A model generated the notes under the pieces. The model was not told where the DNA came from and ran no database searches. It worked only from the letters and a program-made list of their open reading frames with translations. Shown here piece after piece: positions 17,582 through 19,666 of a stretch of DNA of 43,944 bases. Position numbers and translations under genes: made by a program. This stretch comes from Candidatus Moraniibacteriota bacterium (GTDB lineage Bacteria; Patescibacteriota; Minisyncoccia; Moranbacterales; UBA2206): NCBI GenBank assembly GCA_049297495.1, contig JBAQUL010000007.1, positions 1 to 43,944 on the forward strand. Reading direction: 5' to 3'. The stretch's first letter is position 1. Each line of letters begins with the position of its first letter.

Positions 17582-19666
17582 ATGTCCGAAAACAAATTCA
17601 AAATTTCATCCAAGTTTAAGCCCGAAGGCGATCAGCCTAACGCCATTGCGCAGCTGACTGAAGGGCTTGAAGCTGGTAAAAAAAGCCAGACGCTTTTGGG
17701 CGTGACGGGGTCGGGGAAGACTTTTACCATTGCCAACGTGATTGAAAAAGTGCAAAAGCCGACGCTTGTCATTGCACCGAACAAAACTTTGGCCGCGCAA
17801 CTGGCGCAGGAGTTTCGCACGTTTTTTCCCAAAAACGCGGTGGAATATTTCGTTTCCTATTATGACTACTATCAACCAGAAGCCTACATTGCATCAACTG
17901 ACACCTACATTGAAAAGGAATCGCAAATTAATGAAGAGATTGACCGGTTGCGTCATGCCGCCACGGCGGCTCTCATGAGTCGTGACGACGTGATTATTTG
18001 CGCTTCCGTGTCTTGCATTTATGGTTTAGGTTCGCCGGACTATTATCGCAATTCGATGTTGGAAATTAAAATCGGTGCGAAAATGGAACGGGAAAAAATC
18101 GCGCGGATTTTGGTGGACATGCAATATGCGCGCTCGGATATTTTGGCGCGGGGAAAATTTCGCTTGACTGGAAGTACACTAGAAGTCATCACGCCCGGAC
18201 GAGAAATTGTGACTCGAATTGATTTGGAGCGGGATGTGATTCACAAAATCGTGGAATATGATTTTTTGACCGGCGAAAAATTGGCGACACTTCAACAGAC
18301 TTTCATCTATCCCGCCAAGCACTTTGTTGTGCCGGAAGCAATAATGGAAAGCGCACTCGGCAAGATTGAAAAGGAGCTAGGGGATCAGAAAAAGTTTTTT
18401 CAAAACAAGGGAAAAACCTTGGAAGCAGAAAGGATTTGGCGTCGCACTCGGCAAGATTTAGAAATGATGCGCGAAGTTGGCTATTGCAACGGCATCGAAA
18501 ATTATTCGCTCTATCTCACTGGTCGTGAATCCGGCGAAGCGCCCTACACTTTAATGGATTACTTCTCCGCCCGTAACGCTTCGCGTAGCGATGCGGACGG
18601 GTCAGCTAATAATGCTTCACATGGCAATGGGGGAGGTAGAGACTTTTTAACCGTAATTGACGAATCTCACGTGACCGTTTCTCAACTCAATGGAATGTAT
18701 AATGGTGATCATTCTCGCAAAGAAAATTTGATTGACAATGGTTTTCGCTTGCCGAGTGCATATGACAATCGACCGCTGAAATTTCAAGAATTTGAAAAAA
18801 AGATGGCGCAAACAATTTTTGTTTCGGCGACGCCGGGGAAATATGAGCTCGAAAAGTCTCAAATTTCCAATTTCCAATGTCAAAAGGGTGCGGGGAAATT
18901 AGAAAATTCGGGAATTGTCGAACAAGTCATTCGTCCAACTGGGCTTATTGATCCAGAAATAATCATTCGCTCGGCCAAGGGGCAAGTGAAAGATGTGGCA
19001 TTGGAAATTGAAAAAACGGTCGCCAAGAAAAATCGTGTGCTGGTGACGACGCTGACCAAAAAAATGGCCGAAGATCTTTCAGATTTTTTGAAAGAAAGTG
19101 GAGTAAAAGCGGAATACTTGCATAGCGGTGTAGATACTTTGGACAGGGTTAGAATTCTGGAAAAATTAAGACGCGGAGAATTTGATGTTTTGGTTGGAGT
19201 TAATCTTTTGCGTGAAGGCCTAGATCTTCCCGAAGTAGCACTGGTGGCCATTCTCGACGCAGACAAGGAAGGCTTTTTGCGCAGTGAAACTTCACTCATT
19301 CAAACCATTGGTCGCGCGGCGAGAAATGTCCACGGACAAGTGATTCTCTATGCCGATCAAATGACCGGCTCAATGACGCGCGCTATCACGGAAACGAACC
19401 GCAGGCGTGCATTGCAAACAGCCTATAACAAAAAACATAAAATCACACCAAAAACAATCAAGAAAAAAATCATCTCGATTGTCGATCATGAAATCAATCC
19501 CAAAATTGTGCAAGATTTTTCACAATTGGAAACCCTGGAAGACATCGCCGGCTACGTGAAACTGCGTGAACGCGAAATGAAAGACGCCGCCAGAAATCTG
19601 GAATTCGAAAAAGCGGCGATTATTCGCGATGAGATTTCGCAGCTAAGGAAGATGCAGAGGAGCTAG
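17582..19666 (+). CDS. uvrB: Excinuclease ABC subunit B
   Basis: GVTGSGKTFT Walker A, DESH box, RPTGLIDP, helicase motifs, and the C-terminal UVR domain LEFEKAAIIRDEISQLRK. 694 aa with two extra segments. Confidence 0.95.
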   Translation: MSENKFKISSKFKPEGDQPNAIAQLTEGLEAGKKSQTLLGVTGSGKTFTIANVIEKVQKPTLVIAPNKTLAAQLAQEFRTFFPKNAVEYFVSYYDYYQPEAYIASTDTYIEKESQINEEIDRLRHAATAALMSRDDVIICASVSCIYGLGSPDYYRNSMLEIKIGAKMEREKIARILVDMQYARSDILARGKFRLTGSTLEVITPGREIVTRIDLERDVIHKIVEYDFLTGEKLATLQQTFIYPAKHFVVPEAIMESALGKIEKELGDQKKFFQNKGKTLEAERIWRRTRQDLEMMREVGYCNGIENYSLYLTGRESGEAPYTLMDYFSARNASRSDADGSANNASHGNGGGRDFLTVIDESHVTVSQLNGMYNGDHSRKENLIDNGFRLPSAYDNRPLKFQEFEKKMAQTIFVSATPGKYELEKSQISNFQCQKGAGKLENSGIVEQVIRPTGLIDPEIIIRSAKGQVKDVALEIEKTVAKKNRVLVTTLTKKMAEDLSDFLKESGVKAEYLHSGVDTLDRVRILEKLRRGEFDVLVGVNLLREGLDLPEVALVAILDADKEGFLRSETSLIQTIGRAARNVHGQVILYADQMTGSMTRAITETNRRRALQTAYNKKHKITPKTIKKKIISIVDHEINPKIVQDFSQLETLEDIAGYVKLREREMKDAARNLEFEKAAIIRDEISQLRKMQRS
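18566..18637 (+). repeat. 72-nt GC-rich palindromic insertion, in frame in uvrB (SARNASRSDADGSANNASHGNGGG)
   Basis: Lies between the conserved DYF and RDFLTVIDESH. It contains cccgtaacgcttcgcgtagcgatgcggacggg. gcgtagcgatgcggac resembles the family-A terminus gcgtagcgcagcggag (11655-11670). Confidence 0.55.
18860..18907 (+). repeat. 48-nt family-D palindromic element, in frame in uvrB (QISNFQCQKGAGKLEN)
   Basis: Arms are aaatttccaatttcc and ggaaattagaaaatt (reverse complement aattttctaatttcc). It is exactly 16 codons between the conserved YELEKS and SGIVEQVIRPTG. Confidence 0.65.

Follow-up and report, generated by a model that had tools for sequence, protein, structure and literature searches.

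The in-frame colonization of genes by small palindromic repeats is an established phenomenon in bacteria. Repetitive extragenic palindromes (REPs) of the GTAG and CGTC types have been found inside uvrA, uvrB, uvrC, excinuclease ABC genes, uvrD, polA, recBCD and genes for tRNA-modifying enzymes, with different REPs occurring at one and the same recB site in two Xanthomonas species (Di Nocera et al. 2013, PMC3733652), and the in-frame Rickettsia palindromic elements (RPEs) have been summarized elsewhere, as have MITEs (miniature transposable elements with inverted repeats) such as Correia, Nezha and QMITE1 (PMC10969869). Here we describe an element of this general kind in the uvrB gene of a Candidatus Moraniibacteriota bacterium, a member of the Patescibacteria or candidate phyla radiation (CPR), on a stretch of 43,944 nucleotides (contig JBAQUL010000007.1), which is analysed as a whole and referred to as the window. 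The element is a decayed palindromic heptamer repeat of about 51 nt (18860-18910; the element, its host gene and the family copies described below lie on the + strand unless stated otherwise) that belongs to a dispersed family built on tandem AATTTCC (repeat family D3). Our preferred interpretation, to which we assign a probability of roughly 0.7, is that this segment is a decayed copy of a dispersed AT-rich repeat, fixed in frame as selfish or neutral DNA in a linker of UvrB that constitutes a hot spot of repeat turnover. A search of the literature on CPR and Patescibacteria repeats (REP, MITE, in-frame, AATTTCC) recovered no description of the AATTTCC family; what we have not found described are the AT-rich tandem-heptamer family as such, its CPR-wide presence in core housekeeping genes, and a hairpin at the edge of its arrays.

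Like the intragenic REPs, the element is a short, imperfectly palindromic repeat that enters open reading frames (ORFs) without breaking them, often at linkers, and relatives of this gene carry GTAG...CTAC repeats at the very same uvrB site. It differs from them in the absence of a GTAG or CGTC tag, in its AT-rich arms (about 30% G+C), in its tandem heptamers and in its weak fold. Thus, if a GTAG-REP is taken as a GC-rich hairpin of 20-40 bp with GTAG at its end, the window element does not belong to this class, whereas inserts in three relatives (L006, L008 and L249; L numbers denote loci in other genomes and contigs, P numbers homologous proteins) do. Of the broader hallmarks of REPs and RPEs, a dispersed family of multiple copies, an in-frame ORF copy situated at a gap in homologues, and presence/absence polymorphism are present. 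With the RPEs it further shares occurrence in frame in unrelated housekeeping genes of a reduced genome, in a manner compatible with protein folding; however, RPEs are about 100-150 bp long, encode a conserved peptide and are alphaproteobacterial, whereas the AATTTCC element is about 50 nt long, heptamer-based and present in many CPR classes. The short tandemly repeated repetitive (STRR) heptanucleotide sequences of heterocystous cyanobacteria are reportedly dispersed tandem heptamer arrays of mainly intergenic location, and we know of no in-frame colonization of housekeeping genes by them. The AATTTCC arrays resemble them in architecture only, in the form of head-to-tail heptamers at many loci, but the unit sequences differ and the AATTTCC family falls outside the cyanobacterial STRR families; matches from Nostoc and Fischerella in the GTDB scan described below (L009, L052) show AATTTCC merging into CCCCAGT-type arrays.

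The host gene (17582-19666, 694 codons) encodes a protein that matches homologue P0001 at 100%, contains the UvrB Pfam domains and recovers UvrB structures from PDB at E=1e-232; the nearest named homologues of both this protein and the UvrC of the window are all from Candidatus Moranbacteria (Patescibacteria/CPR). In HMMER alignments to solved UvrBs (9gy7_E, 1d9z_A and others) exactly 16 residues of the insert remain unaligned, the gap in the B. caldotenax protein falling between ...SATPGPYELEHS and PGVVEQIIRPTGLLDP, i.e. at S403/P404 as counted on the printed alignment. Positions 18860-18907 read CAAATTTCCAATTTCCAATGTCAAAAGGGTGCGGGGAAATTAGAAAAT, which translates in the uvrB frame as QISNFQCQKGAGKLEN, followed by S when the segment is extended to 18910. 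The insert hence adds 16-17 codons that solved UvrB structures lack, and comparison of four orthologous copies gives the element a length of 51 nt (17 codons), with exact edges varying with the reference chosen. The preliminary description of this DNA had proposed a 48-nt in-frame intercalation at 18860-18907 that does not correspond to conserved UvrB residues; sequence and frame are confirmed, with 18860-18910 as the better delimitation, and both the alignment of UvrB homologues and the solved structures place an insertion in a non-conserved linker. As mapped by sequence alignment to the structures, the site lies between motif III (SATPG) and RPTGLIDP, the start of the second RecA-like domain. 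We take it to be the stretch past helicase motif III that leads into this domain (domain 3). The polar loop encoded by the insert is QISNFQCQKGAGKLENS (16-17 residues), with predicted tryptic peptides SQISNFQCQK and GAGK/LENSGIVEQVIR. A scan of the whole window against Rfam at gathering thresholds yielded zero matches and ARAGORN zero tRNAs, ruling out a known RNA as the identity of the element. As a separate observation, UvrB contains a second lineage-specific insert, SARNASRSDADGSANNASHGNGGG (18566-18637, UvrB residues 329-352), between YTLMDYF and RDFLTVIDESH, which divides the alignment to PDB structures into two parts, differs in both length and content between the nearest relatives and is missing in more distant ones; we read its NASRSDA-type peptides as probable translations of GC-rich hairpin repeats.

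The element consists of two AATTTCC heptamers, a AATGTCAAAA spacer and an inverted heptamer pair. Its left arm, AAATTTCCAATTTCC (18861-18875), comprises the two heptamers, and its right arm, GGAAATTAGAAAATT (18894-18908), their degenerate inverted counterparts; these 15-nt arms (inverted repeat I1) are complementary at 13 of 15 positions across an 18-nt loop, a score reached by only 0.04% of 5000 shuffles of the insert (P~0.0004). The potential stem is AT-rich and weak, at -5.2 kcal/mol as DNA (z=-1.2) and -9.6 kcal/mol as RNA (z=-0.5), which is no better than shuffled sequence. Hence the inverted ends noted in the preliminary description are genuine, but they form an imperfect and thermodynamically weak palindrome rather than an exact one. 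In the relative L004 the right arm is GGAATTGGAAAGTT, nearer to the canonical (GGAAATT)2, and across the four orthologous copies the complementarity of the arms is 13/15, 12/15, broken and 13/15, with no compensating changes. Judged from these comparisons, the uvrB element is a true small palindrome that is presently decaying, and we see no sign in the orthologues that would suggest selection on its stem. The possibility that the right arm is a degenerate duplicate of the host codons for GK[YE]LE[K/N]S was judged less likely, given that L004 retains GGAATTGGAAAGTT at this position.

With an inverted repeat present, it is conceivable that the 48-51 nt are left untranslated, through programmed ribosomal bypass or removal at the RNA level; bypass elements of comparable size are known from gene 60 of phage T4 and from yeast mitochondria. 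Beyond the repeat itself nothing points directly to such a mechanism: there is no take-off and landing codon pair and no adjacent stop codon, the stem is weak, and in spite of 8-25% divergence each of the four orthologues has an insert that preserves the frame and lacks stops, the other types of insert at the site being likewise in frame. We consider a bypass extremely improbable. The heptamer was also considered as a -1 frameshift slippery site (AAAUUUC) and rejected, for it is out of the X_XXY_YYZ register in the uvrB frame.

The sequence abutting the insert provides some hints regarding its origin. The native CGGGGAAAT (18834-18842, codons P-G-K) recurs at 18891-18899 within the insert, forming a 9-nt direct repeat (D2) that joins native upstream codons with the right part of the element (shuffle P~0.011), and the GGAAAT within its native copy is complementary to the heptamer. 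This repeat may reflect microhomology used in insertion or a partial target duplication, but it is suggestive only. Similarly, the native GGAAATATGAG (G-K-Y-E) is complementary at 10 of 11 positions to the junction sequence CTCAAATTTCC across a 10-nt loop, which is not significant when taken alone (P~0.07). These features bear on the comparison with MITEs, whose definition the element fits only loosely. Common to both are small size, a non-autonomous nature, terminal inverted repeats (here the imperfect 15-nt arms) and occasional location in frame. In contrast to typical MITEs, there is no clear target-site duplication, the sole candidate being the above 9-nt repeat with one of its copies inside the insert; inspection by eye of the other three intragenic copies in the window revealed none. 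Further, most intragenic copies are one-armed, and no parent insertion sequence was identified, no search having been aimed at one.

The family to which the element belongs is well represented in the window. Allowing up to 3 mismatches, the 17-mer AATTTCCAATGTCAAAA (18869-18885) has 13 matches as against 1.0 expected, a count that none of 100 shuffles reached, and AATTTCCAA has 18 matches as against 2.6 expected, which is likewise attained by no shuffle. Six copies are discernible in these 44 kb: the one in uvrB, three in frame in uvrA and uvrC, and two intergenic. A repeat finder grouped the five + strand copies, starting at 16096, 18849, 30036, 32809 and 33245, and Tandem Repeats Finder (TRF) detected period-7 arrays at 18862, 30042, 32811 and 33251. 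The family core is a tandem (AATTTCC)n of 2 to 6 units, usually with an AT-rich tail of the form AATG(T/A)(C/T)AAAATT...AAA. The first intergenic copy (16096-16141) lies directly past the stop codon of the gene at 15057-16097, with GC-rich hairpin repeats next to it at 16146-16193, and contains an exact second copy of the 17-mer at 16116-16132. The uvrA copy (30036-30106; coding sequence 29297-32389) encodes the peptide KFPNPNFQFQTKSKVQNYND..., and the first of two uvrC copies (site 1, 32809-32879; coding sequence 32432-33769) the peptide QISNFQFLISKQVPISKEQISKK. The second (site 2, 33229-33315) begins with a hairpin at 33229-33251, behind which come (AATTTCC)4 and a tail, AATCAATTTCCAATGATAAAATTTCAAA, positions 33251-33315 encoding DNFQFPISNFQSISNDKISKLKN. 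The sixth copy is intergenic and in the opposite orientation (38324-38372, - strand), ending 4 nt ahead of the ATG at 38376. An AATTTCC-like match at 34402, in a YgjP-like gene, was discounted as it appears to be ordinary coding sequence just ahead of WGSC residues.

These copies, along with those in other genomes, bear on several suggestions of the preliminary description. Further copies do exist, and the intergenic repetition of the 17-mer is exact, albeit one position upstream of the 16117-16133 originally given. The idea of a tiny mobile or recombining palindrome agrees with the multiple copies, the inverted ends and the presence/absence and replacement patterns, but the unit that defines the family is the tandem (AATTTCC)n and not a palindrome. 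In contrast, a length divisible by three is not a property of the element, as other intragenic copies differ in length. It is most simply understood as a survivorship filter acting on insertions in essential genes, helped by the stop-free heptamer: tandem AATTTCC has zero stop codons in all six frames, a feature found in only 35 of 192 classes of heptamers that contain two G/C.

A tandem core, as recovered by TRF, with copy numbers ranging from 2 to 6, might alternatively have arisen in situ, by slippage of a native seed (host GGAAAT- or AATTCC-like codons) into a heptamer microsatellite, in which case the likeness to other copies would be convergent. Potential seeds are available in the form of the native GGGGAAAT 18 nt upstream in uvrB and a native GGAATT about 10 nt upstream in uvrA, both complementary to the unit. 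However, the array is inverted in orientation relative to such a seed, the element has an inverted right arm, and the exact 17-mer that it shares with the intergenic copy includes the non-repeat AATGTCAAAA. Moreover, a composite of about 56 nt, (AATTTCC)3-4 followed by AATCAATTTCCAATGATAAAATTT(C/T)AAA, is nearly identical in uvrC site 2 of the window and in an unrelated glycosyltransferase gene of another genome (Moranbacteria GW2011_GWE2_35_2-, L018), with 1 mismatch in the 28-nt tail and a matching reading frame. As this exceeds what slippage alone would yield, the sequence spreads as a unit, and we regard an origin in situ as unlikely.

Comparison of relatives indicates that the uvrB site is a hot spot of insertion and turnover. 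In an alignment of 30 UvrB homologues (A1) the flanks are invariant (100% conserved), and between YE(I/L)EKS and GIVEQVIRPTG an insert is present in 25 and absent in 5. The inserts, all of which keep the frame, belong to several unrelated types, whose nature is read from the DNA of relatives with 92-94% UvrB protein identity. At this site L001, L003 and L004 have the AATTTCC element; L006 and L008 have GTAGAGACGCA(AAATGT/TTGCAA)TGCGTCTCTAC, perfect GTAG...CTAC hairpins of the GTAG-tagged REP type; and L007 has CCCTCTCCTT-ATA-AAGGAGAGGG, a CCCTCTCC hairpin. In L004 a GC hairpin, CCTGCCTGCCGGTAGGCAAGG, is nested in the first arm of the AATTTCC element; with this hairpin taken out, the four AATTTCC-type copies are 51 nt each and 75-92% identical in pairwise comparisons. 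In a neighbour-joining tree of UvrB computed without the insert columns the insert types are mixed among the branches, and inserts of different type have edges in common, QIS or SIS on the left and NSGI on the right. This combination agrees better with insertions that nest and are then deleted, or with recombination, than with separate hits on an unoccupied site. Two further observations concern the occupants of such sites. A more distant homologue, P0024 (75% identity), has QVPNPNIQINPKSKIENKKIN at the same hot spot; as this resembles the uvrA insert of the window, FPNPNFQFQTKSKVQN, AT-rich heptamer-type elements occupy the uvrB site in more than one lineage. Secondly, a CCTGCC...GGCAGG hairpin (peptide LPAGRQG) is nested in or abuts AATTTCC arrays in three unrelated CPR genomes (uvrB of L004, L044 from Uhrbacteria, and L015), which suggests that this hairpin family has an affinity for them.

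The uvrA and uvrC sites present a similar picture. At uvrC site 1 the AATTTCC element is present in the window and in L249, the closest relative (UvrC identity 90%), whereas L250 is empty, like many homologues, and its protein is 17 aa shorter; the insert thus exceeds L250 by about 51 nt. At uvrC site 2 the window and L250 have the AATTTCC element, which is also found here in homologues of as low as 68% identity, but L249 has GTAGAGACACATTGCAATGTGTCTCTAC, a GTAG REP, instead. At the uvrA site, where the stretch 30041-30151 of the window is unaligned to solved UvrA, the element is again shared with L250, while L249 has no insert, being about 66 nt shorter, and L008 has a 38-nt perfect GC palindrome. 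Repeated gain, loss and replacement would be expected to leave such an incongruent spread of inserts among the relatives. Apart from this site, another segment of the window UvrA, DSARNATLLNGTENSDSYSKKTKEGTNSKEHSVAGG (30728-30826), is unaligned to solved UvrA and common to L008, and the UvrA of L008 has an additional ARNASRSDAGG insert elsewhere, implying that UvrA holds several repeat-derived inserts. With respect to UvrC, the Moranbacteria proteins are short, at about 363-509 aa among the 120 listed homologues (P0121-P0240), and their precomputed Pfam matches comprise GIY-YIG, UVR, UvrC_M and the UvrC RNaseH-like domain, the helix-hairpin-helix domain not being listed; canonical UvrC has about 600 aa and includes the latter domain.

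Beyond this lineage, a scan of GTDB (one genome per species) with AATTTCCAATTTCCAAT recovered at least 120 loci, on which all proportions given below are based as a sample. Among the matches listed, 51 of 120 loci bear Patescibacteria/CPR names, and these span the Microgenomates, Parcubacteria, Saccharibacteria, Peribacteria, Doudnabacteria and other classes. By our estimate CPR genomes make up only a few percent of the GTDB collection, in which case the CPR would be strongly enriched among these loci. The tandem arrays have 2-5 units. When an array is called intragenic if its stop-free stretch spans no fewer than 150 codons and extends 30 codons or more to either side of it, 36 of 55 CPR arrays qualify, 26 in sense orientation (encoding FPISNFQ-type peptides) and 10 in antisense (KLEIGNW-type). 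Their hosts, as recognized by conserved motifs, include LeuRS, IleRS, MnmA, topoisomerase I (TopA), LepA, TsaD, a MurC-like ligase, KsgA, TrmD, Fmt, RluD and glycosyltransferases; none of the 36 is a uvr gene. Most intragenic copies outside the window have one arm only, with no inverted arm, and clearly palindromic versions of 50-110 nt are found in Magasanikbacteria spacers (L046, L060) and in the metagenome contigs L153, L165, L185 and L148/L177, the last two from the sample that also gave the relatives L002 and L005. A metagenome scan with the exact 17-mer recovered at least 120 loci, of which about 20-25 are true family members by eye and most others chance contexts, making it a poor census. 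On the side, the tandem-heptamer 17-mer has 49 exact matches in IMG/VR viral contigs (L251-L299), including giant-virus bins, and several non-CPR or unclassified metagenome-assembled genomes (L023, L035, L067, L079, L091, L093, L100 and L115) have inverted heptamer arrays around a segment of about 25 nt, followed by AATTTCAAGCCGTGAACGGCT with a small hairpin; this composite might represent a separate, conserved element or else a small RNA.

An over-represented motif with copies in repair genes could conceivably also act as a signal in the manner of DNA uptake sequences, especially as the CPR are thought to depend on DNA uptake and such sequences are said to be biased towards genome-maintenance and repair genes. 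However, the density in the window is only about 6 per 44 kb, most genes have no copy, and the copies are tandem, length-variable and degenerate rather than a fixed 9-12-mer. The occurrence of the motif in very distant CPR classes and in non-CPR genomes is also unlike the lineage-specific nature of uptake sequences. This makes an uptake signal very unlikely.

The CPR arrays display a distinctive feature at their 5' edge. In 14 of 57 CPR arrays among the matches listed, a perfect hairpin with a stem of 6-11 bp and a loop of 3-7 nt ends 0-4 nt from the start of the array, as against 2.4% at random positions in the same loci (binomial P=6e-11). If the stem is required to have 7 bp or more, the -5..+4 nt bin holds 12 such hairpins and the rest of the 70 nt upstream only one. 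No comparable peak is seen on the downstream side, where the edge of the element is fuzzy, and only 2 of 72 non-CPR arrays have an edge hairpin. The loci concerned are L011, L015, L031, L038, L053, L054, L057, L103, L104, L121, L122 and L127, along with 33229-33251 of the window. The hairpins differ in sequence at every locus, and the left arm, if not both, consists of host coding sequence wherever this can be judged. The one at uvrC site 2, TATCATCT-CTGATCG-AGATGATA, directly followed by the array, is a case in point: its left arm supplies the codons for the conserved A-I-I-S in ALQHIxDxALIS and is present in 27 of 27 aligned homologues, while its right arm (R-D-D) occurs only in alleles with the AATTTCC element. 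Similar hairpins with a host-derived arm are found in LeuRS (L038, L122), a family-2 glycosyltransferase (L103), MnmA (L011) and Fmt (L057). In LepA and IleRS both arms are at native-looking positions, which means that the origin of the arms is not uniform. The edge hairpin has the appearance either of the flank duplicated in inverted form upon insertion or of an insertion at the feet of a hairpin.

These junctions are reminiscent of the templated insertions yielded by snap-back or template-switch repair, as in Pol-theta-type end joining and quasipalindrome template switching. The likeness, which is an analogy of mechanism only, consists of a junction with an inverted copy of the adjacent host sequence and a perfect hairpin at one edge of the insert; the difference is that in the CPR the same heptamer array is inserted each time. 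We know of no demonstration of such a pathway in CPR bacteria. The junctions might nevertheless hint at hairpin-associated template switching or snap-back repair, and a speculative extension, which we regard as possible but doubtful, is that a polar process of this type, rather than ordinary transposons, installs the arrays across the CPR. Upon meeting a hairpin, be it native, REP-derived or an inverted copy of the flank, synthesis would come to a halt or fold back, switch to an AATTTCC-bearing template and then return. In essential genes this would leave an in-frame product of the form [host sequence]-[loop]-[inverted host sequence]-(AATTTCC)n.

Taken with the turnover described above, these features accord with a simple account of the uvrB element. 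Under the selfish or neutral interpretation, short hairpin-type repeats would be repeatedly inserted at the site, nested into each other and deleted, which would be why close relatives hold different occupants. Such DNA would survive only where it is stop-free and in frame and where the protein tolerates extra residues, and the in-frame copies at tolerant linkers would be the remnant of a much larger flux of insertions. The ribosome would read through the insert, giving a polar loop in a tolerant, non-conserved linker of UvrB. Spread probably involves copying of an existing array at hairpin-associated breaks or stalls, through template switching or break repair; a dedicated transposase seems less likely because of the perfect hairpin, partly made of host codons, at the 5' edge of a quarter of the arrays.

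Several points weigh against this account. Mobility is suggested by the distribution of the element, and within the 44-kb contig we found no transposition event and no transposase, REP-associated tyrosine transposase (RAYT) or reverse transcriptase linked to it, none of 20 proteins of the window that were compared with Pfam being a transposase. Preservation of the frame suggests that the insert is translated, and the AlphaFold2 model of the window UvrB (30-sequence alignment; mean predicted local distance difference test score, pLDDT, 51; predicted template modelling score, pTM, 0.35) was set aside as unusable, being too poor to place the loop on the surface. Within some 180 kb of Moranbacteria DNA the strong arrays are limited to uvrA, uvrB, uvrC and one spacer, and 4 of 5 strong arrays of the window are in nucleotide excision repair (NER) genes, which constitute about 15% of its sequence (rough binomial P~0.002). 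A purely neutral model predicts no such clustering, and a link to NER genes has thus still to be reckoned with.

This clustering is the principal argument for a functional role of the arrays, whether as cis-acting sites, such as iterons bound by proteins or structures in the mRNA, through which NER expression would be coordinated or attenuated, or as loops that tune the proteins, resulting for instance in a mutator phenotype, as has been suggested for repair genes bearing REPs. All strong intragenic arrays in the related DNA are in the three uvr genes, the uvr arrays are all in sense orientation, and a putative gene for an S24 peptidase (LexA-like) lies upstream of uvrA, by synteny with L249, L250 and L008; the presence of REPs in NER genes has itself been held not to be fortuitous (PMC3733652). 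Against this, close relatives have unrelated sequence, or none, at each of the four sites, with conservation of neither sequence nor stem, the CPR arrays at large are in many unrelated housekeeping genes, with 0 of 36 sampled among the matches listed being in uvr genes, and the second uvrA paralogue of the window (35477-38290) has none. We see no evidence for a function of the uvrB element and consider such a role improbable, retaining the selfish or neutral reading.

The surroundings of these genes are of some interest in themselves. The spacers of the window are mosaics of other short repeat families, with pairs 84-96% identical, including GC-rich hairpins such as TCCTCTCCCTCCGGGAGAGGA. Pairs are formed by 16146-16193 with 39441-39488, 16270-16377 with 33841-33948, and 16393-16445 with 16888-16940, and TTGTCATCCTGAGCGGA occurs at 16228 and 33803; the genome thus hosts many small repeat families beyond AATTTCC. 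The two uvrA paralogues (29297-32389 and 35477-38290) are linked by the repeat families D1, D4 and D7, with AATTTCC arrays only in the first. Upstream of this uvrA are an ORF of 219 aa (27105-27764) and, in between, one of 270 aa (28360-29172); the former equals in length the Peptidase_S24 (LexA-like) gene found ahead of uvrA in L249, L250 and L008. Finally, the ORF at 3820-4698 contains a BRO-N domain and is possibly what is left of a mobile element or phage; L008 likewise has BRO-N genes in the corresponding neighbourhood, close to RNase J and to a gene for a class I tRNA synthetase.

If the favoured interpretation is correct, ultra-small CPR genomes tolerate and turn over selfish repeats within their most conserved proteins, including aminoacyl-tRNA synthetases, topoisomerase, translation factors and UvrABC. 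This would have practical consequences, in that the inserts yield spurious 'lineage-specific' loops and low-complexity peptides (e.g. FPISNFQ or KLEIGNW) in annotation and homoplastic indels at fixed sites in phylogenetics, while for protein engineering the hot spots would point to places that naturally permit insertion. The clustering in uvrA, uvrB and uvrC echoes the published and as yet unexplained bias of REPs towards repair genes (PMC3733652), and the flank-derived hairpin at the edge of the arrays would be a clue to how short repeats enter coding DNA, which is relevant to REPs and RPEs as well. Should the template-switch process prove to be real, it might act as a general driver of the remodelling of loops in CPR proteins and would explain why hairpin repeats stack on and replace each other at the same codons, including those of NER genes.

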